Shown piece after piece: positions 584 to 56,081 of a stretch of DNA of 60,784 nucleotides. The translations under genes and the position numbers were made by a program. The stretch is from Candidatus Micrarchaeota archaeon (lineage in GTDB: Archaea; Micrarchaeota; Micrarchaeia; Norongarragalinales; SBBD01): NCBI GenBank assembly GCA_043803465.1, contig JAZDKC010000074.1, positions 1 to 60,784 on the forward strand, written 5' to 3'. Position 1 is the first letter of the stretch. Every line of letters starts with the position of its first letter. Below the pieces are notes generated by a model. It did no database searches. It was given only the letters and a program-made list of their open reading frames with translations, and was not told the DNA's origin.

Positions 584-741
584 GACACATATAGGGGATG
601 ATCTAGAACCCCTTAGGTTCTAGTCATGCCAAGAAACTCTTGTTTCTTGAGCAACACATTTCCCCTGCTCGTGTTACGTAGGGCTCCACTCTACTAACAT
701 ACGAAGACATACGTCTTCGGCATGTCGCCTCCGCCCCTTTG
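584..741 (-). repeat. Long (158 nt) form of the GACAC/GTGTC hairpin element, directly after the kae1 stop
   Basis: Minus strand starts CAAAGGGGCGGAGGCGACATG, contains AACACGAGCAGGGG and several hairpins (CGAAGAC/GTCTTCG, CAAGAAAC/GTTTCTTG, CTAGAACC/GGTTCTAG), ends CCCCTATATGTGTC; followed by a copy of the kae1 3' end (567-583). Confidence 0.8.
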
Positions 742-1823: not shown

Positions 1824-1875
1824 GGGGGGTGGGGGGATGCTAACACGGGCAGGGGCAAAGCCCCCGGGAGGTGTC
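1824..1875 (+). repeat. Hairpin element copy in the divergent kae1/DP1 promoter region
   Basis: G-tract..GCTAACACGGGCAGGGGCAAAGCCCCCGGGAGGTGTC, with TTTAATAAA-containing copies at 1802 and 1877. Confidence 0.8.
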
Positions 1876-1939: not shown

Positions 1940-3454
1940 GTGATAACCATGCCTATTGACAGGGCTCAAATTCTGCTCATGCTGAAGGAGAAGGAGCTGA
2001 TGGCATCCCCGGAGGCGTTGGACGCGCTAATCAATTCGGACAACCCCGAGGCGATAATTGGAGAGCTCGCAAAAAGGAATATCATTGTCGCTGATTTTGA
2101 GCAGGTGCACGACATCATTGAAAGCAGGGGGGTGGATGAGAAGGTCGTGCAGGTCGAGGTTCTGCAGGAAACGAGCTACAATCCTGCTGCAAAAGGCGTG
2201 GAGGCCAAGCTAAATCTGTCAATCCGGAACGATGTGACCGGAAAATCACGATGCACAGGCAGCGTGGATGATTTCGTGAGGTATTTCAATGACAGATACG
2301 ATAAGCATCGCAGGAGCCTGAGGGGGATGGCAACAAATGGAGGCGGGCTTTCAACCATTCGGGATGTGAAAAATTACCTCAAAAACAAGGAGGCGCGGAT
2401 CATCACGATGGTTTACGACAAGCGCATCACCAAAAACGGCCACCTGATGTTTGATGTTGAGGACGACCAAAGCACTGCAAGCGTATTGGTGCCGAAGGAC
2501 TCGCAGCTGTTCTACGAGGCATCGCAAATCCTCAATGACGAGGTGGTCGCATTCGATGTGTACCACTCGAACTCCTCGCTTCTTATCGCAAAGAATTTCG
2601 TGAGGCCCGGAAGGCTGCTTCAGGAGCGCACGAAAAAACTCATTGACGAGGATATTGGCATCGGCTTCCTTTCGGATTTGCATGTGGGCTCGAAATTCTT
2701 CATGCAGGAGAATTTCCAGAAATTCCTCGAGTTCATGAACGGGAAGGGCACTGCGGCGCAAAGGGAGGTCGCGGGCAAAATCAAATATTTATGCTTCGGA
2801 GGGGACAATGTGGACGGAATCGGCGTTTTTCCGGGGCAGGAAAAGCAGCTGGTCACAAAAGGGATCCATACGCAATACGAAATATTCTGCGAATTCATAA
2901 AGAACATCCCGGAGCATGTCGAGATAATCATTGCGCCCGGGAATCATGATGCGGTAAGGACTGCGGAGCCGCAGCCTGCGCTCCCGCAGGAGTTCTGGGA
3001 GGCACTGAAAGGCTATAGCAACGTTCATTTTGTCGGCAATCCATCCGCTCACAACGTGCATGGCTTGGAACTTTTGGTTTACCACGGCACTTCCCTTGAC
3101 GGGATAATTTCACACACGCAAATGTACAAGGACGGCTATATACATCCTGAAAAAGTCGCGGTAGGGCTTTTGCAAAGGAAGCACCTCGCCCCGCTTTACG
3201 GGGAGGATCCGTTGGTGCCAGAAGCGCACGATTTCATGGTGATAGAGGAAACGCCGGACATGTTCCATTTCGGGCATGTGCACAAGAATGGGCATATTGA
3301 GAATTACAATGGCACGTTGATTGTTAATTCGGGGACATGGCAGGATAGGACGGATTACCAGGTGAGGCTGGGGCACATGCCAACGCCATGCATCCTGCCG
3401 ATTTACAGCATGAAGAGCGGGAAGCTGCAGCACATTGATTTCAAGGGGGTATAA
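1940..3454 (+). CDS. polB: DNA polymerase D small subunit DP1 (proofreading exonuclease)
   Basis: OB fold plus phosphoesterase motifs SDLHVGS, GDNVDG, PGNHD, YHG, GHVH; adjacent to DP2. Confidence 0.95.
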   Translation: MITMPIDRAQILLMLKEKELMASPEALDALINSDNPEAIIGELAKRNIIVADFEQVHDIIESRGVDEKVVQVEVLQETSYNPAAKGVEAKLNLSIRNDVTGKSRCTGSVDDFVRYFNDRYDKHRRSLRGMATNGGGLSTIRDVKNYLKNKEARIITMVYDKRITKNGHLMFDVEDDQSTASVLVPKDSQLFYEASQILNDEVVAFDVYHSNSSLLIAKNFVRPGRLLQERTKKLIDEDIGIGFLSDLHVGSKFFMQENFQKFLEFMNGKGTAAQREVAGKIKYLCFGGDNVDGIGVFPGQEKQLVTKGIHTQYEIFCEFIKNIPEHVEIIIAPGNHDAVRTAEPQPALPQEFWEALKGYSNVHFVGNPSAHNVHGLELLVYHGTSLDGIISHTQMYKDGYIHPEKVAVGLLQRKHLAPLYGEDPLVPEAHDFMVIEETPDMFHFGHVHKNGHIENYNGTLIVNSGTWQDRTDYQVRLGHMPTPCILPIYSMKSGKLQHIDFKGV

Positions 3455-3642
3455 AAATGCAAAATCAGGGGGGTAGGCGGCAAAACGAGTGGGGAACCGA
3501 AGGTGCCCCGGAGGTGTCGAGCACATTGATTTCAAGAAGTTTTAATTTACGCAAAACGGGGAGGGGAGAGGCGACACGAGTGGGGAACCGCAGGTGCCCC
3601 GGAGGTGTCGAGCACATTGATTTCAAGGGGGTATAAAAATGC
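3429..3642 (+). repeat. Tandem array with 91-bp period: two hairpin elements (3468-3518, 3558-3609) and three copies of the DP1 3' end
   Basis: AGCACATTGATTTCAAG at 3429, 3520 and 3611; 32-bp identity between 3429-3460 and 3611-3642. Confidence 0.92.
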
Positions 3643-22500: not shown

Positions 22501-25500
22501 AGGGAACAAAGGAAATTGTGATGTTCGCGAGGTTGGTGTTCCCGGTGTTTGTAATGGTAACTAGCGTGGTGTTCATTTGGCTGAGGTTGCCGGTAATATT
22601 GATCAGGGAAACGCTTGCTGATAGGGTATGGGTCGACTGCACTATTACCGAGGAAGAATTGGAAATGGTCATGTTGGTTTGATTGTTGTTCCGGTAGGAA
22701 GCATTCCAGGTAACGGTGTAGCTAGATACCGGGAGGTTCGGAACAGTCACATTGAATGTCGCATTGCAATGCGAGTATGTCGGAACCGATGCCCCGCAGG
22801 TTGTGGAAAGCTTGTCAATAGAGGCCATCTGGCCTTTGCTCAAGTATGAGATCAGGGGTTCGAACATCGTCGCATTGTTCCTGTTCGTAAGCGTGACATT
22901 GATCAGGAACCATGTGGGTGGCGAGACAGTTTTAGCTGAGGCAAGAAGGCTTCCACGCGTGATCGCCTCCTCGAATGAGGTTTCGTAGAGTACCGATGCG
23001 GGTTCGTAGAATGCGGAATTATTCGTTGCTGTGATATTGACGGAATAATTGCCGCCGATGAGCTCTGAAGCGAATATGAAGCCGACAGTGCAATTGCCGT
23101 CGATAGTGCTGCAGCTCTTTGCAAGCGAGTAAGCTGAATTCAGATTTGTAAGGTTGACCGTTATGTTTGAATTCAGACCGTACAACGCGGTTGCGTTTAT
23201 TTCATTGAGGAAAGCGGTGACGCTTCCATTCGAGCCGAAGGTGATGCGGTATTTCATGTACCTTGCAGGCGTGCCGTTCAATACGGATCCTGCGCTGTTA
23301 GTGAGGTTTTCAAATGTGGAATAGGTGACATTGTCCTGTGAAATTGCGGCCTCGATCAAAAGAGTTGAATTCTCAACAACCACCGAATCCCAGCCCACCT
23401 TCCAATGCGTTTGCGCATTTCCCGAATCGAACCCCCGCTCGAAGATGCCCGAATTGAAGAATTCGGTGTCAGCAGGAGAATCGGAGAAGTTGAGGCTGAT
23501 GTTGTTTGAGTTGATCGTGATGTTCGTCCCGTTGCCGTAATTGAAATCAGCTTCTGCGGAATCGATGGTCAGATTGCTCAGGTCAAGGGACGCAAAAATC
23601 GCGGTTATGTTGGCATTTCCGAACCTGTTGTAGAATTGGGCGCGAGGCTTGTAATTCAGGGCGGTATTTTCCCAGAGCTGAACCTGTAAAGTTCCGTTCT
23701 CACCCAAATTGCCGGTCGTGTCATTTACAATAATAGTATAATTGTGGATGCCCAGGGGCTGCCCGGTGACGTTGAGATAACAATTGTTTCCTGATCGGGC
23801 CATGGTGAGGTTCTGGGAGGAGCCGTTGAGCCAATAGAGGATGCAATTGTTCGGATTCATTTCCGTAAAAGTCGCATTGACATAAACCCAATCGTAGTGA
23901 ATTCTGGAATAGTTTTCAGGAGTGGGAAAGACGGCGGTAATTTCCGAAGGATTAATGGTGTCGATGAATGCGCTTCTTGCGGATGTCTGGTTGCTGTTGC
24001 CTGCCGAATCGTTCAGGAAAACATAATACGAATATGCCCCTTCTGCAAGGGAGGTTTTATTCAGGAAGCATGCGTGCGCGTTGCAGGTAAGTGGCTCTGC
24101 AATGCTGTTCCAATAGAGCAATGCGGTGTGGAGGTTTGCATCCGTGTAGGAAGTGTTCACGTAAATCCAATTCCTTGAGAGGTTGATTTCATCATCCGGG
24201 GTTGGCAGGATATAATCCACCATCGGGAAGGTCGTATCGATCGTAAGGTTGAAAGTGCCGTTCCCTCCAATGTTTCCGGAGGAATCGTTCGCAAAAACCG
24301 TGTAATTCCAGATCCCATCCGCATGGCCGGTTATGTTCAGGTAGCAATTGTTGCCGGTCATGCCTGCGGTGATGTTGTAAACCGAGGTGTTGGCCCATTG
24401 CACCCAGCAGTTGTAGGGGTTGATTTCCGTGAAAGTGTAATTTATGTAAACCCAGCTATAATTGAGGAAGGAGTTGTTGGCAGGCGTCGGATAGATCGTA
24501 TTGATATTTGCGGGCGGATTGCCATCCATGCTGATGTAGAAAGTTCCGTTTTGTGCGGAATTGGCTGAAGTATCATTAACGATAATAGTATAGTTCCAGT
24601 AGCCGTCAGGTTGATCGGTCACATTCAAATAGCAATTATTGTTGGACCGGGTCATGGTGAGGTTCATCAGGCTCCCGTTATTCCATTGCAAAACGCACGC
24701 ATTCGGGAAAAGTTCCGTGAAGGTCGCGTTAACATAGACCCAATTCCTATAGGTGAAAGAGAGGTTTGCGAGAGTGGGGGAAACCATTGCAATGTTGGAG
24801 GGCGCAAGAGTGTCAACTGTGACAGTAAATGTGCCGTTCTGCGCAATATTGCCAGCCGAATCATTTACAATAATAGTGTAATTCCAAACACCGTCAGGCT
24901 GGCTTGTTAGGTTCACATTGCAAGTGCCGTCCAATCTTGCCATCGAATAGTTCGCGATCGATCCATTGTAATATTGCAGGGTGCATGCGCCGGGGTTGGG
25001 CTCGTTGAAGCTTGCATTCACATAGACCCAGCCGTACCCCCAATGGGAATTGTTTGAAAGTGTGGGCGATTCGGTTTTTATGCTGGAAGGCGGCAGGGTA
25101 TCAACAGTAACGGTGAATGTGCCATTGTAGCCGAGGTTACCGGCAGAGTCGTTCACGAACAAGGTGTAATTCCAGTTGCCGTCGGTTTGGCCGGTGATGT
25201 TGAGGAAGCAATTGGAATTGCTTAACGTTGCGGTAAGGTTGTAGGTGCTGGTGTTTACCCATTGCACCCAGCAGTTGAATGCGTTTAATTCCGTAAAGGT
25301 GTAATTAGCATACACCCAATTCCTGCTCGTATTGCTGCTGTTTCCAAGAGTGGGCCCGATAGTTTGAATGCTTGATGGCCCGGTCGAATCCACCCTCACA
25401 GTGCGATTTGCTGCAGAGAAGTTGCTGCTGGAAGGGATAGCATTATCGTAGCATTGCACGTTCCATAAATAGTCTCCGTCCGCTGCAAATGTGTAGCTGA

Positions 25501-28500
25501 TGGTGTTTGCGGAGTTGTTCAAAATGGCGGATTGGTTGAGCTGCGTGTACTCGAACGTTCCGGTGGCGTTGGTCCAAATGCTGCAATTATTGTAACCGCC
25601 GTCATCAACTGGCGCGTATGAGAAGGTAACCGTTTTGCTGCTGCTCGCCTGCAGATCATTGGGCGAGTTAAGGGAAATAGAGGGTAGTGCATTAAGGTAC
25701 AATATTACTGATGAGCTAGTGTTTAGCACGGAACTGTTGCTTGCCCTGTAACTAAGCAAGCCTACTGTTTTGGTTGCACTCACATTGTACGGGATGTAAC
25801 AGTTGATTCCATCATCGCTGCCGGTGCAACCCGGAACGTAGGCAGCCTCGGCAACTTGATCATACTCCTGAAGGACCTGATTCGCAATTCTGCCGTTCGC
25901 ATCTGAAGTGCCGCTTCCCATTGATGCGCCGGTAACATTCGCTATGTTTACGGAAGCTGATTGCACGGGATTATTCGATTGATCCCTCACAATTACACCC
26001 ATGAACCAGAAAACGGTCATGTTGTTTCCGGCCGTGCCATTCTTGGTGGTGGAACGGTTGAATGCGGTGTTGATGAAATGGCTGCCGGTTGCGGAGTTGT
26101 TCATGTAAATGTCGCCGTAGGCAAGCGAGATGTTGCCAAACGAGCTGTTGGTGAAATTCGTGTAGGTGGCGTTGTTGAGGAAGAGGTTGTATTGCGTGCT
26201 GTTTGTCAGATTGACACCGTTGAAAGTCGCATTAACCGTATTATTCAGGAAGATGCCATTGGTGAAATTCAATATTCGGCAATTGTTCGCCCGGAAATCG
26301 CGGAAACCGTTGCTGGCAATTCCGTAGCTATCTGCTGATGCGTTGCCCGAAATTTTGTAGCCGTTGCAATCGAGCTGGATGTTGTCCGCACCGATAGTAT
26401 AGCAGGTGCCTCTCGTTGTGCTCACATCCGCACTGAGGGAAAGATCGGTTGTGATGGTGCCGCAGGGGGATAATGTAAGGGTCAGGAGCCTATAGGAGGA
26501 AATGTCAAAAAGCTGGGAAACGGGCAAATAAGGCGAAAGGGTCGCTGTCAGGTTGTAGGAATTATACGTGGTATTGGCCGTGTCGTTGCCCGTGAATTCC
26601 GTGACTGCCTGGGTCGTATTGTAGCCGGTTGCGCCCGTCAAGCCGGTATACTGGGGGACGCCGGATGTAGAATTCCGGATCGTGATGTTCGCACCGTTAG
26701 CAGGGCTGTTGTCCTCGAAGCCGACGAAAATATCCACATTCCACCTTACGGTAAGATTGTTGTTGCCGCTTCCCCATCCGTATTTCCGGTTAGTAATCGA
26801 TAGGTTCTGAAGGAGGTTGTTCTGCGAGTTGGCTTCGGAATAAACCGAGTAATTGTTGCCGGAAGCCGGCAGGTAATTGAAAACCGAATTGAAAGCGTTG
26901 TTGTTCGAGCTCCCAAGGAAGTGGAGGCCGATTACCAATCCCCCAGTCCCGTTGCTGTTGTTCACAATTCCATCAAAATAAGATGAATTTACCAGGGTAA
27001 AGTTTGTGGACAGAAGCTGCAGGCCGAACGCGGAGCCCCTGCCGCCAAGGGTGCTGCCGTTGCCGCCCACACCTGCAGAGGAATTGCTGAAATTCGAGTC
27101 AAGTATGGTCGTATTGAGTGAGGAGTTGGAAATGAATAATGTCGAATTTCCCGCGTCGCCCCCAATCCCATACAAATTCACTGCGCCGCCTTTTGCACCA
27201 TCCCCGCCTGAACCGGCAATTACCTTCGATATATTGAAGCTGTTGAACCAGATGCTGTCGGAGGAGTTCAGTGCTATGCCTATCGCCGAACCTCCCGCGC
27301 CTCCTGCAGCGCCATTGCCTGCAGGAATATCATTGGCCGCACTCCCCTTGCCGCCGAATATCCCGGTTACTGAGTTATTGCTGAAGGTGTTGTTGCGGGA
27401 TGAATCCAAAATAATTGCGAACGCCTTTCCCCCAGCGCCTCCGGTGTTCGATGCTGCCGTAGTCTGGAAAGGCGCGCCGCCGTTCCCGCCGGAAATATTC
27501 ACGATCCGGTTGCCGGAAAAGGTATTATTGGTACCATTGACCAGGAAAATCCCGATTGCGCCGCCGCCGTTCTTTCCCGGCCTGCTGGAATCCGTACCTA
27601 CGGGACCCCTACCGCCGATCACTGTGGAAATGGCGTTATTGGTTATGCTGGAGTTGGTCAGATTTAAAAAGTAAAATGCGGTCGCATTCAGGCCAAACGA
27701 TGAATAATTGCCTCCAAATTGGCTGCTTACATTGTTGGAGGTAATGTTCGAATTGCCGCTCCAGTCTACGAGGATCGAGTAATTCCCATTTGAAATGAAT
27801 TTGTTGCCCCGGATTAGAAGCGTGTTAGCGGATCCGTTCACGTAAATCCCGGCATTCGAGTTGTTGGTCAAGGTATTGTTTGAAAGGTTGGCGATGTGCG
27901 AACCCGGAAGGAGCTCGATTCCGTTTGAGAAATTGACGAGATGGCAATTGGTGATGTTGACCCCGGTTACGCCGTTCACGACAATTCCGGAGCCGTTCTG
28001 CTGAGTACCGGTAATATTGAAGTTGTTGCAGTTGAAATTGATGTTTGAGGCCGAGATGGTGTAGCACGTGCCATTCGATGCGATGCTTCCGGGCAGGGTT
28101 GTGGAGGCAGCGATCGTGCCGCAGGGGACGACCGGAAGCACCATCAAAATGGTCTTCGAATCGTTGATAGGAAGCAAAGTCGAATTCACGGCGCCGGAAT
28201 AGGCGACGGTGAAATTGTAGATGCCGTAACTCGTATTGGAGCTGCTGTTGCCAATGAATTCGTTGGCTTCCTGCCAGTCCGTGAGGCCGTTGGCATCCGT
28301 TAGCATGTTGGTGAAGTTTGTGGCGCCAAAAGAGGAGTTTGTCATGTTCACATTTGCATTGACTATTGCGGTGCCTGCAGTGCTTCGGACGTAAATTCGG
28401 ACGTAGTCCCGGATCGTGACATTCCCGTTCGAGAAGCCTATCCGGCTGCGGTTGAATGAATTGTTCAGGAGGATGTTCGTGGATTGGTTGATATTGGTGA

Positions 28501-31500
28501 TGTTGATATCGAAGCCCCGCGGGGAGAAGTAAAAGAGGTTGCCGATGAAATTGTTGTATTTGGTCAGGTTCCCATTGGAAACCGAAGTGGTTGTCAGGAA
28601 GAGATTGGAAATTGTGCTATTTCGGAAGGTGTTGTTCTCTATCGTGTTATTGTTGCAGCCGTTCGAACCCGAAAGGCAGGAGATCTGCAGCGCATAATAG
28701 GAATTGTTGTTGAAGGTATTGTTGTATATCCTCGAGAAATTGAGGTAGCCGCCTGAAGTCGAGGAAAGGTTGACACCGACAGTGTTGTTGTAAAAGAAGC
28801 TGGCGGAAATGTTGTGGAACTGGCCGTTGCGGAGCATGATCCCGTTTGTGGAATTTGAGACGTTGGAGCCCAGCATGGTGAAATTATTGGCATCGATTCC
28901 CTGGACGCCGTTCGTGAAGTTCGTTATCCTGCAATTCTTGACGGTCACGTTGGTCCTGGAGCCGACATCCACGCCGATGCCGCTCCCGTTGCCGGTCACG
29001 AAATAATTGTTGCAATCGATGGCGATATTGTCCGCATTCGCGGTGAAACAGGTGCCTTGTGCGTTCAGGCTTACAGTCAATGCCGTCGAAGTGGCAATCG
29101 AACCGCAGGTGATTATTGGGAGTACCACCAATACTTCGGCGGATTGGTTCGTGGGATAGGTGGTCCAGTTGGTAACCCCCGAATAATTTGCGGTGAAATT
29201 GTAATTGGCAAAAGAGGTGTTAATGGAATTATTACCGAAAAACTCCGTAACCGCAACCCAGGCAGTATAGCCGTTTGCGTCCGTAGGGAGATTGCGATGA
29301 TTTGATGCGCCGCTGCTCGTATTGGTTATGTTCGCATTTGCGCTCTCAATGCCGGCCAGATTCGAACCGGTCACATAAACCCTGAAATAATCCTGGATTG
29401 TGAAGTTGTTGATCCCGCTGGCATATAGCATATTGCTGCGGTTGAATGAATTGTTTATGAAGTAATTGTTCCAGGAACTGGCGAAAGTGATATCCGAGCC
29501 GGTTGGGGATGAAATGATTATGTTGTTTGTGAAATTGTTGAACATAGTGTATTCGGGATTGCCGGCAGGCCCGTTCAGATGGAATCCCTTTGAACTGCTA
29601 TTCCTCACCGTATTGTTGGCAATGGTGTTGTTCTGGGCCCTTCCGCCTACGGCGGTGAAAAATTCGATGCCATCGGAATTGTTATCAAAAATATTGTTTG
29701 CAATGGTGTTATTTACATTATTACCAACAAAACTGAACAGGCCCAGGCCATTCGAATTATTGTAAATCGAATTGTTGGTCACATTAGAAAATGCATTGTT
29801 TTGCAATAAGACCCCATAAGTGGAGTTCCAAATCGAATTATTGGCAATAGTAAGGTTATTCCCTTCGCTGTCGATCCCGCGGTCGAAGGAGGATATGTTG
29901 CAATTACGGATGGTTACGTTGGAGTAAGACGTAATATCCACGCCGTTTCCCGTGCCATCGCCCGATATGGCATGGCCGGCACAATCCAAAACAATATTGG
30001 AGGAAGTAACGGTAAAACAGGTGCCATTCGCGAAAAGCGGAACTGCCAAAGTCGCAGAATATCCGAGGTTGCCGCAGACTGTAACCGGGATGATGATCGG
30101 AACGGCCTGGGAATAGTTGATCATGCTTAAGGTCGAATTCGTATAGCCGTTCCAGGTTGCAGTAACATTGTAATATGAATAATTCGTGTTAACCGAGTAA
30201 CTACCGATGAATTCGTTCAGGGGCACATAGGCAGTCAAGCCATTGGCACCCGTTATTTGGTCCGTATAATTGATTGCGCCGAAACTCGAGTTGGTTATAT
30301 TGACAAAGGCAGACCCAAGGCTGACGCCATTAGAACTGGTGACATTCACCCGGACATAATTCTGCAAGGTCATGTTCCCGGAAGTGAAACCGAGCCTTGA
30401 GCGGGTGAATGAATTGTTGAGGAAGATATTGGTAGAGAAGTTTACATCAGAAATGTTGATGTCGCTGCCGATGCTCGCATTGTAAAAAATATTGTTGGTG
30501 AAATTATTATCCGCTATGAGTTCCGGGTAACTGGAATAGCCAAGCAAATACAAGCTGGTTGTGCTGCTGTTGCGGAAGGTATTGTTTATGAATGAATTAT
30601 TCTGTATGTAATAAAGGGACGTTATAAACAGCTTAATGCCGATGCTGTTGTTCTGGAAAGTATTCGAAAATAACTTGTTTGAGCGGGTCAATGTGCCAAC
30701 CAAGCTCCACGACCTGAAGGTAATCGCGTCGTCATTGCCTGAAAAGGAGTTGTTTGAAAAATTGGAATGCCCAAGGCCGTAGAAAAATACCCCGCGGGTG
30801 CTATTTATGAAGGTGGAATTGATTACGCTTAAATAAGTATTATCCGAGTTGCCACCCACAATGCCCGACGAGAGGTTGATGAAGCTCGAATTGATAATAG
30901 TGACATTGTGGGCAGCAAGCATGTTGACCCCCGCGCCTGTGCGCTGATTGTGGTCGAATACGCTCGAATTGATCAATGCGAAATAGGAGGATCCGATATC
31001 CACGCCATCCGAATTATTGTAGAAAGTAGAATATTCCAGCGTGAAATTGTCAGAGCTGCGGCCATAGATGCCGTCGGTGAAATTCGAAATGACGCAGTTC
31101 TTCACGACGACGTTGTCGAAACCGTTGAGGTCTATTGCGGCACCGGAGCCGCTGCCCATAATTTGCTTGCCCTTGCAGTCGATTGTAACGTCGTTCGCCT
31201 GCAATGTAAGGCAGGACCCCCTTGCATCAAGAATTCCGGTGCTCAAATTGAAATTGCTGGAGACGTTGCCGCACCAATCTACGGTCTCGTTGCTGAATTC
31301 CATGTAGGTGTCCGTCCGATTCCAGAAGAGCGCTATGTTCGCGCAATTCTTCTGGATGGTGCAAGTCCGGAAGCCTAGCCTTTCGCCTGGGTAAAGGGTG
31401 GCGTTTTCGCCCGGGCCCATGGTCATAGTTGCAAAGGCGCCTATGAAGGCCTTGTAACAATCAATTGTGGTATTCGTGCGGTTGATTTCATAAACCGAGC

Positions 31501-33223
31501 CGGTGCTATTGTATTTCAAAAGGCTAACGGTGAAATTTGAGGATTGCCCGGTAACACCCTCATTGCCCTTGAAGCCCAGGTAAATGTAAATTGTCCCATT
31601 CACCAGTTCTTTCTCCAAACCGGCACTTTGATTGAATTGGGGGGTAAACCAGGTTTCGTTGAAGCAGGTCAGGGTTGTTGCATTCGATACATGGGTCCAG
31701 GGGTCGTTATTGGGAGTAGTAACTTGCAAGCTCTTGTTCAGAGTGGCGACATCGCTTGTGGAATTAGACAGGAACCATCGGATTTGGGACGCCGTATTGT
31801 TCGCATATGCGACCGCGTCACCAAAGCGGAATTCGAGGCGATGCGGCCCGGATGTGCGGACGGCGCTTTCCTCCGAGCCCTCGAGTTCGCAGGAATAGTC
31901 TGCAATGAATGCGGAGGTGCCATTGAAACTCGCGCCGGCATCCGCTTCGCCGCACTTGATGAATTTGAACTCCAGGTCATGGTCGAAGGTGGTGTTGTCA
32001 ATTGCAGTTACCGTAAGGGGGGCGGAGCCGGTTGTCGTGAACCGCACGGTCCAGTTGCCTCCGACTGCAGGGAAGCTTTGGAGATTCAGGATCGTGATAT
32101 TCACGCCCGCATAGCCGGAGAAGTGGTCCACCTTGAAATTGATACGGCCATCGGTTTCGGCGAATGCCGCGTCGATCATTTCCCATTTTGCGCAGAGGTT
32201 GGATGCGGCGTCGTAATTGGTGCAGGAAACAATCCGTTCGGTCTTGGAATTTGCCGGGAGGGAAATTAAGGCCTCCTCGAATTCCAGCGAGTTCAGTCCG
32301 ATGAAATCGGTTGTAAAGTAGCCTATGATGTTCGCCCTTTCCGATTGGAAGATGTTTGCAAATTTGGAGGGGGGCTCGCCATTGATATGATCGAGGCTTG
32401 TTGGGTCCCTGAGCCCCAGAATTTCAATGGAGGATCCGTCAAATTCCCCGGAATTCGATTTTTTCCGTTTATCCGAGGCAATGGAGAGCCCGAGGTCATA
32501 AACGGTTTCGTTCGTGCCATTTACGTTTTTCACCCGTTTTTTAAGCGAGGTGAATTTCAATTTTTTCAGATGCTTGAATTTTTCCTTCAGGATCCCCAAT
32601 TCCGGAAGCTCGGCGATGCGGCCGGTTTCGTTCAGATCGGTTTCATTTAGGGAAGTCTGATTGAGGCCGGTCTGGTTGAAAAACGATTCATTCAAAAAGG
32701 TGTTGTTGGAAATAGTCCCATTAAGAATGGTTTCATCCATCAAGGTTTGATTCGCGATTGTATCGTTCGCAATGGTTTGATTTGTGATTGATTCGTTCAT
32801 CCCGGTTTGATTGAGGAATGTTGAATTGGAAATCGTTTCGTTTGCGTCGGTCTCGTTCAGGATCGTTTGATTGACAATCGAATCGTTCGCGCCCGTTTGG
32901 TTGGAAATCGTTTCATTCGGGGAAATGGGATCGCCCGGTTGGGTCTGATTTTCCGAGGTCTGATTGGTCGCATTCGCATCGGGGAAATCAGCGTTTAGCT
33001 CAAGCAGGCCGGAATCGGTGAAATTCGAAAGGTTCGAAAGGGTAAAATTGAAGTCGGTAAGGTTGAGGAATTCCGGTGCAATGCTTGCTGTCGGGTATGT
33101 AAGATTCGTGGAGTTGGAGCTCTCGTTTTGGATGGTTTGATTGATGCTGTCAATAGTGGTTAAAGAGAGAAGTGAAAGCAGGGCTAATGCGAACGGGGCG
33201 AATAAGTAGACCTTGCCGCGCAT
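16556..33223 (-). CDS. Giant (~5,555 aa) membrane-anchored surface protein: beta-helix and Ig-like repeats, TM helix, cytoplasmic HerA/FtsK-like (DUF87) ATPase
   Basis: Signal peptide; NxT/S-rich region; C..I....V..DC.G beta-helix repeats; ~97-aa repeats at ~23.7-25.4 kb; P/T linker; TM ~17800-17865; Walker A GATGSGKT (17612-17635); VLVFDPT; Walker B CVYDEVH; RKWGVGMLLISQ. Confidence 0.88.
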   Translation of the reverse strand: MRGKVYLFAPFALALLSLLSLTTIDSINQTIQNESSNSTNLTYPTASIAPEFLNLTDFNFTLSNLSNFTDSGLLELNADFPDANATNQTSENQTQPGDPISPNETISNQTGANDSIVNQTILNETDANETISNSTFLNQTGMNESITNQTIANDTIANQTLMDETILNGTISNNTFLNESFFNQTGLNQTSLNETDLNETGRIAELPELGILKEKFKHLKKLKFTSLKKRVKNVNGTNETVYDLGLSIASDKRKKSNSGEFDGSSIEILGLRDPTSLDHINGEPPSKFANIFQSERANIIGYFTTDFIGLNSLEFEEALISLPANSKTERIVSCTNYDAASNLCAKWEMIDAAFAETDGRINFKVDHFSGYAGVNITILNLQSFPAVGGNWTVRFTTTGSAPLTVTAIDNTTFDHDLEFKFIKCGEADAGASFNGTSAFIADYSCELEGSEESAVRTSGPHRLEFRFGDAVAYANNTASQIRWFLSNSTSDVATLNKSLQVTTPNNDPWTHVSNATTLTCFNETWFTPQFNQSAGLEKELVNGTIYIYLGFKGNEGVTGQSSNFTVSLLKYNSTGSVYEINRTNTTIDCYKAFIGAFATMTMGPGENATLYPGERLGFRTCTIQKNCANIALFWNRTDTYMEFSNETVDWCGNVSSNFNLSTGILDARGSCLTLQANDVTIDCKGKQIMGSGSGAAIDLNGFDNVVVKNCVISNFTDGIYGRSSDNFTLEYSTFYNNSDGVDIGSSYFALINSSVFDHNQRTGAGVNMLAAHNVTIINSSFINLSSGIVGGNSDNTYLSVINSTFINSTRGVFFYGLGHSNFSNNSFSGNDDAITFRSWSLVGTLTRSNKLFSNTFQNNSIGIKLFITSLYYIQNNSFINNTFRNSSTTSLYLLGYSSYPELIADNNFTNNIFYNASIGSDINISDVNFSTNIFLNNSFTRSRLGFTSGNMTLQNYVRVNVTSSNGVSLGSAFVNITNSSFGAINYTDQITGANGLTAYVPLNEFIGSYSVNTNYSYYNVTATWNGYTNSTLSMINYSQAVPIIIPVTVCGNLGYSATLAVPLFANGTCFTVTSSNIVLDCAGHAISGDGTGNGVDITSYSNVTIRNCNISSFDRGIDSEGNNLTIANNSIWNSTYGVLLQNNAFSNVTNNSIYNNSNGLGLFSFVGNNVNNTIANNIFDNNSDGIEFFTAVGGRAQNNTIANNTVRNSSSKGFHLNGPAGNPEYTMFNNFTNNIIISSPTGSDITFASSWNNYFINNSFNRSNMLYASGINNFTIQDYFRVYVTGSNLAGIESANANITNTSSGASNHRNLPTDANGYTAWVAVTEFFGNNSINTSFANYNFTANYSGVTNWTTYPTNQSAEVLVVLPIITCGSIATSTALTVSLNAQGTCFTANADNIAIDCNNYFVTGNGSGIGVDVGSRTNVTVKNCRITNFTNGVQGIDANNFTMLGSNVSNSTNGIMLRNGQFHNISASFFYNNTVGVNLSSTSGGYLNFSRIYNNTFNNNSYYALQISCLSGSNGCNNNTIENNTFRNSTISNLFLTTTSVSNGNLTKYNNFIGNLFYFSPRGFDINITNINQSTNILLNNSFNRSRIGFSNGNVTIRDYVRIYVRSTAGTAIVNANVNMTNSSFGATNFTNMLTDANGLTDWQEANEFIGNSSSNTSYGIYNFTVAYSGAVNSTLLPINDSKTILMVLPVVPCGTIAASTTLPGSIASNGTCYTISASNINFNCNNFNITGTQQNGSGIVVNGVTGVNITNCHLVNFSNGIELLPGSHIANLSNNTLTNNSNAGIYVNGSANTLLIRGNKFISNGNYSILVDWSGNSNITSNNVSSQFGGNYSSFGLNATAFYFLNLTNSSITNNAISTVIGGRGPVGTDSSRPGKNGGGAIGIFLVNGTNNTFSGNRIVNISGGNGGAPFQTTAASNTGGAGGKAFAIILDSSRNNTFSNNSVTGIFGGKGSAANDIPAGNGAAGGAGGSAIGIALNSSDSIWFNSFNISKVIAGSGGDGAKGGAVNLYGIGGDAGNSTLFISNSSLNTTILDSNFSNSSAGVGGNGSTLGGRGSAFGLQLLSTNFTLVNSSYFDGIVNNSNGTGGLVIGLHFLGSSNNNAFNSVFNYLPASGNNYSVYSEANSQNNLLQNLSITNRKYGWGSGNNNLTVRWNVDIFVGFEDNSPANGANITIRNSTSGVPQYTGLTGATGYNTTQAVTEFTGNDTANTTYNSYNLTATLSPYLPVSQLFDISSYRLLTLTLSPCGTITTDLSLSADVSTTRGTCYTIGADNIQLDCNGYKISGNASADSYGIASNGFRDFRANNCRILNFTNGIFLNNTVNATFNGVNLTNSTQYNLFLNNATYTNFTNSSFGNISLAYGDIYMNNSATGSHFINTAFNRSTTKNGTAGNNMTVFWFMGVIVRDQSNNPVQSASVNIANVTGASMGSGTSDANGRIANQVLQEYDQVAEAAYVPGCTGSDDGINCYIPYNVSATKTVGLLSYRASNSSVLNTSSSVILYLNALPSISLNSPNDLQASSSKTVTFSYAPVDDGGYNNCSIWTNATGTFEYTQLNQSAILNNSANTISYTFAADGDYLWNVQCYDNAIPSSSNFSAANRTVRVDSTGPSSIQTIGPTLGNSSNTSRNWVYANYTFTELNAFNCWVQWVNTSTYNLTATLSNSNCFLNITGQTDGNWNYTLFVNDSAGNLGYNGTFTVTVDTLPPSSIKTESPTLSNNSHWGYGWVYVNASFNEPNPGACTLQYYNGSIANYSMARLDGTCNVNLTSQPDGVWNYTIIVNDSAGNIAQNGTFTVTVDTLAPSNIAMVSPTLANLSFTYRNWVYVNATFTELFPNACVLQWNNGSLMNLTMTRSNNNCYLNVTDQPDGYWNYTIIVNDTSANSAQNGTFYISMDGNPPANINTIYPTPANNSFLNYSWVYINYTFTEINPYNCWVQWANTSVYNITAGMTGNNCYLNITGHADGIWNYTVFANDSSGNIGGNGTFNLTIDTTFPMVDYILPTPDDEINLSRNWIYVNTSYTDANLHTALLYWNSIAEPLTCNAHACFLNKTSLAEGAYSYYVFLNDSAGNSNQTSARSAFIDTINPSEITAVFPTPENYSRIHYDWVYVNATFTEMNPNNCILYWLNGSSQNLTMARSGNNCYLNVTGQPLGIHNYTIIVNDTTGNLGENGTLQVQLWENTALNYKPRAQFYNRFGNANITAIFASLDLSNLTIDSAEADFNYGNGTNITINSNNISLNFSDSPADTEFFNSGIFERGFDSGNAQTHWKVGWDSVVVENSTLLIEAAISQDNVTYSTFENLTNSAGSVLNGTPARYMKYRITFGSNGSVTAFLNEINATALYGLNSNITVNLTNLNSAYSLAKSCSTIDGNCTVGFIFASELIGGNYSVNITATNNSAFYEPASVLYETSFEEAITRGSLLASAKTVSPPTWFLINVTLTNRNNATMFEPLISYLSKGQMASIDKLSTTCGASVPTYSHCNATFNVTVPNLPVSSYTVTWNASYRNNNQTNMTISNSSSVIVQSTHTLSASVSLINITGNLSQMNTTLVTITNTGNTNLANITISFVPSTMDGAWITFDPYDFGGLFPNMNFDLDVMIQALAPFTPGVYTGKVNITADDLINGPNTTATSIDIMVISEPQVTATPTVLIADQNLTSNPTLAANISNPGNAPVTNVSVTLENSTIPDGWISFDSIDPAWDSLTNSWTSITEGTEAVLQIIVTILDFIEGVFSAIIKIVSDEGVATYVNVTVNVTPRLDAVSTINLTIQHGFANATEFYINSTGNVKLVNLMISYNETTLPGSWLAFNTTFIENITEFVNYSVQFNVTVPFGTPPGNYSGQINISGYNANRTIGISVEVPENATWYFLPFGDQYKEFGLAESGAIGTITINNTGNANLSFDIGYGDFGGRASCIGGDPYFQDLCTQAVVPSNPTLLNATKNTTTSFTISKVAAGFSNNSDGYALQITMANNSGVPTSNSTVLYFNITNAFPQFRLAATYVNTAQRPYVEYNQTVTLNVTATDDESYGLNPSTAIFNISRPDGTNETYNALNLTLNPFTACGGTCQDAQSYNLAYNATNMSGRFNVTFQVQDALSQQNMTSFYFTVITITNLTLSGNGSNITNAQRNINSTLLLNLSANNTGLVSAYSINLSGMFARQAGAADTLSNWSFNAIPTIPYINGTLQNLTTFNITVGQRSLGIYYFTPNATWAQPNGTIEVIWGPNLTINITSNPDFNVTASNQSLAIPHGFNQTEWFSITPVGNDNITNYTISLSTNYANFSVTFNHTSGNLTLDGLANVSMNISVVYGANSGFRNFTVNVTGGNYSKSFVVNLTVPFNNTWAANTNLFTLDGIAGENSLDNRTLIAHYGTGDAFLNFTFNLTGNMTDFSNLVNTSKYLNTTQSYDIGINYTAPDNNYLYVGCLNITEKNSSSYQLVNITFRSFTVELSVVNITAPLQVIAGDIINESVLLIFGGQNTTSNTTWSMFLNSTQCPLLSNTTFDNESRLACTAPALLDAVYYDLTVRANYSTGSSYLVKNTTNSGYIFYKDITPPQIIAEYSNDTERYENITLSINATDNLALANATVQVTFPNLTAANYTLLYNPGTNLFANQFNLTALGYYSLVYFVNDTTGNMNYSSAGSFEIYETRIFSGTISNLEGNPIVVNFTVRNTSESNYEAFSTNSSGTYNKSLRAKWYELNLKFLFYNVTADRVDFNTINQSLLSLDNFSGSDISSQILGAKAGFAVISNMPTNGTLIIEYADLLATITDETLLRIYNCHNYTYASRSCVESWSQMQNTSLNTIGNTINGTISAFANTTVAYALVQYTVPTPTPTTLPPYNPPSGGSVGSTGGYTPPQPPAASPTPIPAPTDNVSKQIEELKKLLQENKTKDMGLEPGVQSIVFELYPGESSQTSVHIKNTLNATSKINVTLVGVIRDFITASSKQISLNRMHETDLMIFATIPDKAKTGNYYGELQLQNEVGKISIPVTVRVLDRKEERSLDLRLQPLVDTIDPGETLRVEVNIYNLAEASEIKGIFHLEAVDPVTDSVLEQTQEEEITLQNTYNSIKPIKIPSDAHTGRLVIRGVFDYSVGETLKKRDVTAIAYVRVQTSFWSNKLFGMISIWQFIPLLLILLATIFTYYRQYSVTKSKRRYVAKVDFTKLPEPGLRAGFLGLIAETKVRSFAAIDKLQMHTLIAGATGSGKTVAAQVIVEEALQKNTAVLVFDPTAQWTGFLRAQKNRDMLLNYRRFGMNTDEAKAFKGNIYVVRDPNMAIDIKKLMKPGEITVFVMNKLSFADHETFISNTVKQVFAAGLPESPQLKLLCVYDEVHRLLPKFGGRGEGFIQIERGAREYRKWGVGMLLISQVLSDFVGEIKANIGTEIQMRTKYEGDLERLKLKYGEDSARSIVKESIGSGMVQNSEYNNGQPYFVSFRPLLHNVVRLSDTELSQYETYNDKVEKLEADMEQLRQEGHDVLDLELEINLARDKVKKGAFNIVEIYLDSLSQKIESMRKKSGQKPSPRIDMLDFGIGDILGEKKADEAAGKDAKTDAEKKDIA

Positions 33224-39842: not shown

Positions 39843-39886
39843 GACACCTAGGGAATACGAATCCCCCATCGTGTCGCCTTGCCCCC
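39843..39886 (-). repeat. Hairpin element after the phosphoesterase stop
   Basis: GGGGGCAAGGCGACACGATGGGGGATTCGTATTCCCTAGGTGTC, followed by a copy of the gene 3' end (39815-39842). Confidence 0.9.
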
Positions 39887-43408: not shown

Positions 43409-44878
43409 CTAATGCTGCTTCCGCGCTTTTTCATCATCGTCCTTCTCAAGGATCATTTCAGCGTAGTATTTGCGCATGAACAGGTTCACATCCTCAATTT
43501 TCGTGACCTTGTTCTCGACCAGGTAGGAAAGCATTTTCCGTCTTTGCGCAATCTCGGCGGTCACCTCACTTGGCGACCTGGCGGTCACGCGCGCGAGCTT
43601 TTCAAGTGATTGCGAGGGCAGGTTGGTTTTTTCCGGTGCGAGATGCTCGTAGTTGAACCTGTAAAGCTCATTTTGCGTGACCACATTGTCGAGCCAGTCA
43701 AGCTCTGCAATCTGGGTCACCCGCCTCACAAGGCCGTCCTTCTTTGTGTAAATCCTATGCTGCACCAAAACTATATCAACAAGCGGGATCAGGTTTGGCG
43801 GCACATTCATCGGGAAGTTCTCAAGCCGCTGGATCGTATCCTTCGCATCCTGGGCATGCAATGTGGCAAGCATGCCGCGGGAGCCGATATTCATGGCGGT
43901 AAATAATGGATGCGCTTCACTGCCCCGAACCTCCCCGATGATCAGGCGGTCGGGCCGCATACGAAGCGAATTCTTCACAAGCCCTTCCAGATCCACATGC
44001 TCCGTGGTTTTTGTGGCAACCCAGTTTTCCATCCCATACAGGCTGATTTCCCTAGTATCCTCCATGCTCACGATCCTTTCGGAGGGGGGGATGAAGCTGC
44101 TTAGGGCATTGATCGTGGTGGTTTTGCCGCTTGCGGTTTCACCCACAATCAACAGGTTCATGGGATGGAGCCGGAAGCCTTCGATCATGACCCAAAGGAA
44201 TGCGGCGATGTCCAGGTTCATGGTGCCGTTTATTATCAAATCGATCACGGTCATGGGCTGCTGCTTGAATTTACGGATTGTCAATGTGACCTGATCAACT
44301 GCCGGCGGGAAGAGCACATTCGCACGGCTGCCATCCGGCATCCGGATGTCTTCGGTTGTCCTGCGCTCATCCGGGAGGATTTGCTGGAGCAATTCGAGCA
44401 TGTGCTTCTCATCCCGAAATTTCAGGTTGGTTTTGCACATCCCCACTTTCCTGTGGAAAACGTAAATATCGTACGGGCCGTTGACCATTATTTCCTCGAG
44501 CTCATCATCCTCGAATAAAGGCTCAAGCAGGGCAATCCCAAACATCCGGGAAATCAGCTGCTGCACCATCAGCTTCTGCGAGACCGGATCCGGGAGCACC
44601 TGCGAAAAAAGCACAATCAGCTGCTCGCGCATCTTCCTGCGTTCCTCCGTCGGCAACGGCTTGCCGATTATGCCTTGATCAAAGCCGGATAGGAATTCCT
44701 TGAAGAAGCGCTCCTTTTCCTCGAGCTTGTAGGTGCGGCTGAAATCCTTCAATTGGGTTTTTTGCGAGATCAGCTTGATGAAGTCATTCATGATGTATTC
44801 GAGATCCGCCGAGAGCGGCTTCTCCTCGATGACGTAATTGGAAAAAGGGTAGTCAATTTCAACGCGCGCTTCGTACAT
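43409..44878 (-). CDS. TadA/CpaF/VirB11-family secretion ATPase
   Basis: EEIMVNG, GETASGKTT, EDTRE, LRMRPDRLIIGEVRG; true start likely ATG 44878. Confidence 0.9.
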   Translation of the reverse strand: MYEARVEIDYPFSNYVIEEKPLSADLEYIMNDFIKLISQKTQLKDFSRTYKLEEKERFFKEFLSGFDQGIIGKPLPTEERRKMREQLIVLFSQVLPDPVSQKLMVQQLISRMFGIALLEPLFEDDELEEIMVNGPYDIYVFHRKVGMCKTNLKFRDEKHMLELLQQILPDERRTTEDIRMPDGSRANVLFPPAVDQVTLTIRKFKQQPMTVIDLIINGTMNLDIAAFLWVMIEGFRLHPMNLLIVGETASGKTTTINALSSFIPPSERIVSMEDTREISLYGMENWVATKTTEHVDLEGLVKNSLRMRPDRLIIGEVRGSEAHPLFTAMNIGSRGMLATLHAQDAKDTIQRLENFPMNVPPNLIPLVDIVLVQHRIYTKKDGLVRRVTQIAELDWLDNVVTQNELYRFNYEHLAPEKTNLPSQSLEKLARVTARSPSEVTAEIAQRRKMLSYLVENKVTKIEDVNLFMRKYYAEMILEKDDDEKARKQH

Positions 44879-44912
44879 GAATTGAATAAGCAGAAGTGGT
44901 TTAAAAAAGTGA

Positions 44913-45168
44913 GCAACGCCTCCGGGGGACCGGTTGCCCCTACTCGTGTTGCCCCTACCCCTTCTGATTTTGAATACCTTTATAACCGGCAACTCCCAAA
45001 ACAATAACGCAGTCTTCCAGATAGCCGGGGAGCTAAGGGATTCGACACCCACAGGGGAATGGCTTCCCCTCCACGTGTCGCCGCCACCCCTTCCGATTTT
45101 GAATACATTTATAACCGGCAACTCCCAAAACAATAACGCAGTCTTCCAGATAGCCGGGGAGCTAAGGG
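44913..45168 (-). repeat. 129-bp period duplication: two hairpin elements (44913-44961, 45044-45090) plus a duplicated SRP promoter/5' end
   Basis: 83-bp repeats at 44957-45039 and 45086-45168, 2 mismatches. Confidence 0.92.
45108..45114 (+). promoter_or_regulatory. TATA box of the SRP RNA gene (duplicated at 44979)
   Basis: TTTATAA ~24 nt upstream of the predicted RNA 5' end. Confidence 0.7.
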
Positions 45169-45416
45169 TTCCTTACAATCGCCAATCCCTTTGAGGCGAG
45201 TGAAAGCTGCGGGAAGGGTGGGAAGCGTTTCTTCAGCCCGTTGCGGTGCCGTCGAAGCGTTGCCTTGCGTTATGCGTTTACCTGTGAATGAGCCAGGCCG
45301 GAAGGAGCAACTATAAACGGACAAATGCATGCTCGCAAGACACAACGTGGAGGCGCCGGAGCGGACTTAGCTGAAGGGAAATTTCCAATTCGACCCGCTG
45401 CGCGCTGGGGGGCTGC
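45138..45416 (+). ncRNA. ffs: Archaeal SRP (7S) RNA
   Basis: Helix-8 motif CCAGGCCGGAAGGAGCA; Alu-like GCCGGGGAGCTAAGGGTTCCTTACAA; terminal helix GCAGTCTTCCAG/CTGGGGGGCTGC; ~280 nt. Confidence 0.88.
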
Positions 45417-55488: not shown

Positions 55489-55959
55489 ATGCGATGCCCG
55501 TACTGCACACATATGGAAACGAAGGTTCTCGATTCAAGGGATGCGGAGGACCTGGCGGTTACAAGGCGCAGAAGGGAGTGCGAAAAGTGTGAGAAGCGTT
55601 TCACAACATATGAGCGGGTGGAATTCCTGGACTTGGTTGTCAGGAAGAAGGATGGCAAGACCGAGCCCTTTGACCGAAAGAAGATTGAAACGGGAATGCT
55701 CAAGGCGTGCGAGAAGCGGCCAATAAGCCGGGAGAAGATCGAGGAGCTCGTGGATGAGATGGAGCGCGACATCCGCAAGAAGGAGGGCACAGAGATCCCA
55801 ACACAGGAGATTGGGGAGCTTGTTATAGAGAAGCTCAAGAAGCTCGACAAGGTCGCATACATCAGGTTCGCAAGCGTGTACCGTGAATTCACGGACCTGA
55901 ATGAGTTTGAATCGGAAATGAAGAAATTGCTCAAGAAGAGCGAAAGAGTGGAGAAATGA
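55489..55959 (+). CDS. nrdR: Transcriptional repressor NrdR
   Basis: MRCPYC..TKVLDSR..RRRECEKCEKRFTTYE, ATP cone, VAYIRFASVYREF. Confidence 0.95.
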   Translation: MRCPYCTHMETKVLDSRDAEDLAVTRRRRECEKCEKRFTTYERVEFLDLVVRKKDGKTEPFDRKKIETGMLKACEKRPISREKIEELVDEMERDIRKKEGTEIPTQEIGELVIEKLKKLDKVAYIRFASVYREFTDLNEFESEMKKLLKKSERVEK

Positions 55960-56081
55960 AATGGCAAATATGAAGGGGTAAGGCGACACGATAGGGGAAA
56001 CGTAGTTGCCCCTCAGGTGTCATGAAGAAATTGCTCAAGAAGAGCGAAAGAGTGGAGAAATGAAATGGCAAATATGAAGGG
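55918..56081 (+). repeat. Perfect 60-bp duplication of the nrdR 3' end around a hairpin element (55975-56021)
   Basis: 55918-55977 = 56022-56081; element GGGGTAAGGCGACACGATAGGGGAAACGTAGTTGCCCCTCAGGTGTC. Confidence 0.93.

Follow-up and report, generated by a model that had tools for sequence, protein, structure and literature searches.

How can a short hairpin come to lie within the first few tens of nucleotides of a single-copy RNA gene, flanked by two copies of that gene's promoter, and leave the gene working? This question is raised by the SRP RNA locus of a Candidatus Micrarchaeota archaeon, which is found on contig JAZDKC010000074.1 of GenBank assembly GCA_043803465.1; the whole stretch of DNA that was analysed (positions 1 to 60,784, that is 60,784 nt) is referred to here as the window.

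A seed-and-extend comparison of the locus with itself aligns 44951–45039 with 45080–45168, the two copies being alike at 85 of 89 bases (four differences) with a period of 129, and a separate repeat search gives 124-nt copies at 44916–45039 and 45045–45168 that are 88% alike at the same spacing of 129. Each 129-nt unit consists of a hairpin region, which is strongly divergent between the units, and a block that carries a TTTATAA box (44979–44985 in the upstream copy, 45108–45114 in the downstream copy) and the conserved start of the SRP RNA (about 45009 and about 45138, respectively). Within each 89-nt block 21 nt are the extension of a hairpin element, and the purely host part amounts to 68 nt (44972–45039 against 45101–45168) with a single difference, so that the length of the duplication is 68–89 nt depending on where the left boundary of the element is drawn. 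The four differences between the copies are without periodicity, as expected for non-coding DNA, and are too few to say more. The first-pass annotation had proposed a duplication of 83 bp containing the SRP promoter and a 5′ fragment of the gene; the length lies within the range found, and each of the direct repeats does contain a TATA box together with ~31 nt from the start of the SRP RNA. A second element at the locus and the 21-nt extensions within the repeated block had no place in that account.

Starting from the left, the locus holds E2 (44915–44971, minus strand), an older, decayed element recognised by pattern and by its matching extension, which comprises a hairpin remnant (44915–44950) and a 21-nt extension (44951–44971). 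This is followed by the upstream copy of the host block (44972–45039, plus strand), a full promoter with a stub of the SRP 5′ (Alu) domain at about 45009–45039, which measures ~31 nt when counted from the base ~26 nt past the TATA box and ~26 nt by the Rfam start. Next comes the inserted hairpin element E1 (45040–45100, minus strand), recognised by its inverted repeat and made up of four filler bases (45040–45043), the hairpin itself (45044–45079) and an extension (45080–45100) whose outermost ~6 nt may stem from the duplicated host or from E2; its last four bases, at 45097–45100, form a TTTT run downstream of the upstream promoter's stub. The downstream, working copy of the block (45101–45168, plus strand), delimited by the sequence and the repeat searches, carries the promoter and the first ~31 nt of the SRP RNA and runs on into the gene body. 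The 36-nt hairpin at 45044–45079 has a single exact occurrence in the window, where 100 shuffles lead to an expectation of none. By the canonical strand of its family, which is the one ending in GGTGTC, E1 lies on the minus strand and is antisense to the SRP gene, and the sequence past its GGTGTC reads as the SRP 5′ end in reverse complement, in agreement with the earlier reading of what follows GTGTC.

The SRP gene itself is identified by a covariance match to Archaea_SRP (RF01857) at 45143–45411 on the plus strand (cmscan), which covers the full model (1–317) at 74.9 bits (E 1.1e-16), a score below the curated gathering score of 96.5 bits; that of a metagenome relative is also sub-threshold at 85.8 bits, and at the curated Rfam thresholds the sole RNA match in the window is a tRNA. 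The match is single in the whole genome (1.4 Mb, 91 contigs), and in congeners the same SRP gene adjoins the same ATPase gene. An 801-nt query comprising the ATPase 5′ end, the intergenic region and the SRP gene matched 26 of 31 genomes, this one included, at the DNA level (E ≤ 0.001), and most matches outside the genus fall in the SRP part. Archaeal promoters follow a spacing rule between TATA box and start, by which the box at 45108–45114 places the start near 45138. This position coincides with a motif conserved in all congeners, and on these two grounds the gene is drawn at 45138–45411 (plus strand).

The SRP gene is expressed in some population with exactly this sequence, because a 170-nt contig from a groundwater RNA library is 100% identical to 45146–45315 (word depth 442). 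A search of sequencing runs found none with more than 0.15 of the sampled words. In four runs the only contigs matched were of the size of the SRP gene (45146–45414), with none over 44700–45131, and they are uninformative on the duplication and on whether the upstream promoter is transcribed. As the downstream copy is still joined to the gene body, the single SRP gene is whole and expressed, and the upstream copy appears to be a relic, with an intact-looking promoter and a 31-nt stub that would run into the antisense hairpin and the TTTT run. That the upstream promoter fires through this hairpin is a reasonable prediction, as its TATA region is intact with one change beside it. A promoter and terminator scan of the bacterial type returned no terminator and one sigma-70-like site, from a bacterial model that is uninformative for an archaeon.

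To the left of the two elements lies a gene for a type II/IV secretion-system ATPase (43409–44878, minus strand; Pfam T2SSE, E 1e-35). The open reading frame runs over 43409–45133 on the minus strand and has 574 aa with a TTG start; the protein that begins with the ATG at 44878 is 85 residues shorter, at 489 aa. This ATG is kept in five congeners, similarity is lost upstream of it, and a metagenome homologue aligns from residue 1 of the 489-aa form (tblastn). The 85-codon extension (44879–45133, minus strand), which had been called spurious at first pass, is indeed so, being a frame that no stop happens to interrupt across the two elements and the upstream copy of the promoter. A metagenome scan with the ATPase gave two loci, both from more distant relatives, and no strain-level variant of the SRP locus.

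Congeners provide a view of the locus without E1. In the closest of them (G002), whose SRP gene is 91% identical, a single segment (L002 1752–1825) aligns to both copies, at 88% and 91%. This genome has one promoter block, no E1 and the same neighbours, and carries a G5/C5 hairpin where E2 lies, whose homology to E2 was judged by eye only, blastn giving no alignment. G002 is therefore an empty site, and since it has one block and lacks E1, the element and the duplication arrived together; the comparison bears out the duplication as first proposed. A plain SRP promoter without an element is also found in G004, G005, G006 and G008 and on one metagenome contig. We consider there to be little doubt that E1 is a recent insertion of a non-coding palindromic hairpin of ~55–60 nt, placed ~31 nt into the SRP gene together with a 68–89-nt upstream duplication. 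E2, the older family member, seems already to have sat beside the promoter before E1.

A sister species (G003) has an element in the same region, here a long multi-hairpin member of the family that lies in the same orientation as E1 after about nt 11 of the SRP gene, with a second, older promoter copy upstream of it; the two promoter copies are 0.60 alike over 55 nt. The extension of this element is nearly identical to that of E2, and it may, with some uncertainty, be orthologous to E2 and have retained its relic. In either case the SRP 5′ region was hit at two different places in the genus, near nt 11 and near nt 31.

The family to which these elements belong has, in the minus-strand reading, an extension of ~21 nt ending in GGC, a two-tier stem that starts with GACACG or AACACG, and a right end of GGTGTC or GGTGTT. 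About 40–55 copies are present in the genome (a loose pattern gives 58 matches, and the extension is recognisable in 39), and in the 31 strict matches the outermost stem pair is G-C in 19, A-T in 12 and mixed in none. Among 201 genomes sampled from the class the strict pattern occurs in nine, all in the window's own family (eight of its eight other genomes and this one), and a reversed control pattern had no matches in the same 201. GTAG stands before the stem in most subtypes, E1 having GTGG instead. The extension varies with the hairpin subtype, and that of E1 resembles E2's in its left part and E1's own subtype in its right part. The fold of E1 stands out against shuffled sequences (z −2.9 and −4.0), whereas that of E2 does not (z −0.6 and 0.1), as expected of an old copy that has decayed. 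A half-site scan for long arm-bounded elements, noisy at the two mismatches allowed, returned only multi-hairpin variants of 90–120 nt and no gene-carrying element.

About half of the family copies are flanked by duplications of 23–89 nt, and near-identical copies are found at unrelated loci. At 25 loci hand-picked from the seed-and-extend output (flank match score 14 or more), the copy after GGTGTC starts 0–5 nt past the hairpin in nearly all cases, and the other copy ends anywhere from 47 nt before the hairpin to 8 nt inside it. Full elements keep about 22–25 nt of extension, and some are truncated on the extension side where the host resembles the extension (C40, window 55985). At five of the family's loci the repeat takes in the extension as well as the first arm bases, and its second copy is followed by another element or remnant, a layout that the SRP locus shares. 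Only 11 of the 39 copies follow a co-oriented open frame of at least 100 codons, against 157 of 2000 random places, which is an undercount as many target genes are short. It had been claimed in the first-pass annotation that the family also hits ncRNA genes and 5′ ends, and this is supported by the separate SRP insertion in G003, by a copy on contig C28 that duplicates the start of a protein gene, and by copies at operon junctions and tRNA ends; because of these targets a pure terminator role does not fit, as had been argued there.

Several other copies of the family were recorded in the window and in the rest of the genome. At window 3429–3642 two family hairpins are interleaved, at a period of 91, with three copies of a 32-nt operon junction (gene stop, TATA-like box and start of the following gene); the outer two junction copies are identical, and the middle one has diverged with the stop codon at its end retained. 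At window 55918–56081 one element of 44 nt, its extension truncated, lies between the two copies of a perfect 60-nt direct repeat; since the repeat takes in the end of a gene and the beginning of the one after it, both genes are intact and their stop/start junction is preserved. Two further copies lie at window 1842–1875 and 39843–39875 (minus strand), the latter duplicating the last seven codons of a gene with three differences, all synonymous. At C72:18613–18648 a gene is lengthened in frame, close to its end, by the 93 nt (31 codons) of an element and a 32-nt repeat, and the hairpin is apparently translated. Hairpins also abut two tRNA genes (C56:12446–12556 and C42:2278–2408): the GGTGTT end of one directly adjoins the first base of a tRNA-Arg, so that any promoter would be shifted away by about 60 nt, and another touches the last base of an intron-bearing tRNA-Thr in antisense orientation. 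Long variants of 90–120 nt, with several hairpins and a separate small hairpin ahead, are found at window 584–675 (minus strand), C42:32640–32765 and C40:350–480; the SRP insertion of G003 belongs to this kind, and these variants might represent either a structured RNA or the form from which the short elements derive. The window also holds, at 23600–33100, a long coding sequence with internal repeats, among them one with a period of 288 nt, which probably encodes large repetitive surface proteins.

One target can be followed through the genus. At the end of a zinc-ribbon gene an element and a second gene end are present in four congeners, the elements being of four different subtypes, and the site is empty in three others. 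The two copies have the amino-acid states of their own lineage in each of G000 (the present genome), G005 and G006; in G001 (L024) the copy before the hairpin is the genus-typical end and the copy after it gives a different, longer C-terminus, which, to judge from the sequence, looks like a swapped gene end.

Where the duplicated block is coding, the two copies differ almost only synonymously, and these differences include stop-to-stop and ATG-to-GTG changes. The tests of this pattern used 12 of the 25 hand-picked loci, each with at least two differences; seven loci with none, four with one, the non-coding SRP locus and, inadvertently, C30 (two differences) were left out. The modal codon-position class takes up 45 of the 61 differences, against a simulated mean of 32.6 (sd 2.2), and none of 20000 simulations reached 45. 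Minimised over all six frames, the number of non-synonymous codons is 8, beside 46 synonymous ones. The mean non-synonymous count is 28.4 under random changes and 23.1, with a minimum of 11, under a model of one constrained copy and one neutral relic; in neither case did any of 3000 simulations come down to 8. Counts in the longest open frame (24 synonymous, 36 non-synonymous) are meaningless, given the antisense and read-through frames at C40, C60, C33:46759 and the SRP locus. For the family, the synonymous pattern rejects a local duplication whose spare copy then decayed freely (0 of 3000), and since purely local duplication does not predict this pattern, a switch to a diverged homologous chromosome, an import or a later conversion is needed.

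The search for a mobilising enzyme covered the 90.7% of the genome that is estimated to be present, in which profiles for Y1_Tnp, Phage_integrase, the TnpB zinc-ribbon domain, RVT_1 and Cas1 had no match; neither the reverse transcriptase expected for target-primed reverse transcription nor the Cas1 integrase expected for CRISPR-like or casposon integration was thus found. The sole DDE transposase gene (C17:8739–10000, L035) encodes 403 aa with an N-terminal zinc ribbon and fits IS5 best, at 111 bits (cut-off 140), scoring 27.4 bits on IS1634 (NF033559; cut-off 100). A family hairpin lies 16 nt past its stop, and no ends like those of the hairpin were found around the gene. Inverted ends, as in a MITE of a DDE insertion sequence, are present in the element, but the duplication is long and variable and the sole DDE gene has no matching ends. 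Y1 genes occur in 5 of the 11 genomes of the window's family; among six surroundings scanned none had a flanking hairpin, and the four that were aligned have conserved ends of their own, unrelated to it. The element-bearing congeners G002, G005 and G006 have no Y1 match.

Several explanations of the SRP locus have to be weighed against this evidence. Two tandem units with a period of 129 could suggest plain slippage of a 129-nt unit (E2 plus the block) followed by divergence of the hairpins, which we hold to be very improbable: the host part differs at one of 68 positions, yet E1 and E2 are of different subtypes with an identity of 0.69, E2 ranking 28th of 38 among the relatives of E1, and both have closer relatives elsewhere (E1 in C48:8485 and C40:16909 at 0.87, E2 on other contigs at 0.85). 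This contrast between host part and hairpins indicates that E1 came from elsewhere in the family and is not a copy of E2, on which ground tandem slippage is rejected; other loci, moreover, consist of block, element and block with a single element. An artefact might be suspected in a metagenome-assembled genome of 91 contigs with 3.6% contamination, and is hardly credible here, as direct repeats around a unique hairpin require real molecules that span the joints, the two copies differ, and the same architecture is seen at 20 or more loci in this genome and in independently assembled congeners. It also seems improbable, if to a lesser degree, that a dedicated transposase or nuclease of a novel or trans-acting kind, either IS1634/IS1549-like or a RAYT-like HUH enzyme, recognises the hairpin and cuts the target 24–89 bp apart. 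The perfect covariation of the outermost pair, the near-identical copies at unrelated loci, the Y1 genes in part of the family and the GTAG ahead of the stem in most subtypes, which recalls the GTAG-tagged REPs described in the parts of PMC3733652 drawn on here, would all suit such an enzyme. Against it stand the lack of Y1, tyrosine-recombinase, TnpB, RT and Cas1 genes in this genome, a sole DDE transposase that falls far below the IS1634 cut-off and has no hairpin-like ends around it, the relatives' Y1 genes with their unrelated ends, and the three congeners that carry elements without a Y1 match.

The main rival explanation is that SRP-promoter DNA bearing E1 was imported from a related chromosome, with a homologous joint in the SRP gene and an illegitimate joint between GGTGTC and nt 31, so that the working promoter copy and E1 would be foreign and the relic copy and E2 resident. 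Import fits the family-wide pattern best, the synonymous-only, stop-to-stop and ATG-to-GTG differences being those of two orthologous alleles; the host block is joined to E1 and to E2 in the same way, and the C-terminus that follows the hairpin in G001 departs from the genus-typical gene end before it. The relic promoter of G003 is also closer to four of the five congeners (0.65, 0.69, 0.60 and 0.49) than the working copy is (0.55, 0.55, 0.42 and 0.42), a comparison over 55 nt that rests on about five bases of difference. At the SRP locus itself, however, the copies differ at one of 68 host bases and neither is marked as foreign, E1 and E2 are of different subtypes and hence not simple alleles, and a reason would be needed for the transferred DNA to end at a hairpin; we rate import as rather unlikely for this insertion.

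The best explanation as a whole, to which we would give about an even chance, is the insertion of a hairpin with duplication through copy-in by template switching. For the manner of its arrival, namely template switching without a dedicated transposase, our confidence is somewhat short of even, and we infer the following course only tentatively. A growing DNA strand that copies the region would reach the extension of the resident E2 and switch, via homology of the extension, to a GTGG-type family member elsewhere; it would copy that hairpin to the fixed GGTGTC end, where synthesis would stall, and re-priming on the original or a homologous chromosome ~74–82 nt behind the point of departure would lead to the block being copied again. 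Switching of this kind would explain the fixed GGTGTC joint and the variable, sometimes truncated left joint with its short homologies, as well as the variable repeat length and the common order of new element, block and old element. Inspection of the family loci found no consistent short homology at the return joint. The genome is incomplete, and an enzyme may be unassembled, novel, or supplied by a host or virus, which sets a limit on the case for template switching. If re-priming takes place on a diverged homologous chromosome, import and template switching could be one process.

In comparison with known systems, the locus shares features with several. IS1634 and IS1549 make long target duplications of variable length, as is the case here, and are autonomous elements of 1.5–2 kb with a DDE transposase, unlike the present element, which is 55–60 nt long and non-coding and for which no such transposase was found. 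Palindromic elements with coding potential, termed MJRE, have reportedly been described in Methanocaldococcus jannaschii by Suyama, Lathe and Bork in 2005; the likeness to these archaeal repeats is one of description, with no sequence relation shown. Literature searches found no description of repeats such as ours in these archaea. Insertion with long target duplication, which is said to have been described by Nobusato et al. in 2000, resembles the present case in that an insert lies between long variable direct repeats that both align to one empty-site sequence; here the single segment of G002 aligns to both copies, and the repeats range over 23–89 nt across loci. The difference is that we are dealing with an archaeal family of 55–60-nt hairpins, with tens of events per genome and one fixed joint. 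The sections of Furuta et al. 2010 (PMC2853133) used here describe inserts in bacteria that are mostly restriction-modification gene blocks. From the rRNA-gene survey of Lim et al. 2012 (PMC3457768) the relevant excerpts report a 21-nt insert in a 16S rRNA gene with 270-nt repeats, and state that the long-target-duplication mechanism was ‘not yet’ recognised for short DNAs.

A further likeness is that to the REP and REPIN sequences (PMC3733652, PMC3337134), which are short, G+C-rich imperfect palindromes with many copies at gene ends, with GTAG before the stem as in most of our subtypes, and with some copies in frame inside genes and some that supply stop codons. Unlike these, our family has an archaeal host, E1 has GTGG rather than GTAG, no RAYT gene with flanking hairpins was found, and REPs have not been reported to carry long flanking duplications. 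In homology-facilitated illegitimate recombination (PMC3240628), as outlined in the part of that paper drawn on here, incoming DNA is joined at one end by homology and at the other illegitimately during bacterial transformation or conjugation, and the account there includes no hairpin at the illegitimate end and no link to a recurrent element. Like the arrangement seen here, such an event would leave a displaced resident copy beside a foreign one.

Small palindromic repeats are usually seen as terminators, mRNA stabilisers or dead transposon relics. To what is known of this family the SRP locus adds a target that is an ncRNA gene struck at its 5′ end, the duplication of a promoter, a clear-cut empty site and an independent second hit, as well as grounds for holding that the new hairpin E1 is no copy of its neighbour E2. 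An essential single-copy RNA gene would have been entered without harm because its promoter and 5′ end were copied along, and the clean empty-site comparison allows insertion and duplication to be tied to one event. The separate hit in the sister species makes the SRP promoter more than a one-off target, and the locus offers a non-coding test case for a family whose synonymous-only coding pattern is puzzling. Gene callers will give false N-terminal extensions at insertion sites of this sort. A wider and rather speculative idea, which we think unlikely to hold in full, is that the hairpins serve as portable end-points of a transposase-free process of copying and rejoining, be it template switching or one-sided recombination between related chromosomes. 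If this is true, gene ends and promoters would be moved between lineages of small archaea, each hit gene being left intact beside a spare copy, and if the process is driven by the host, it would be a new route to duplicate promoters, alternative gene ends and small antisense-hairpin transcripts in streamlined archaeal genomes.
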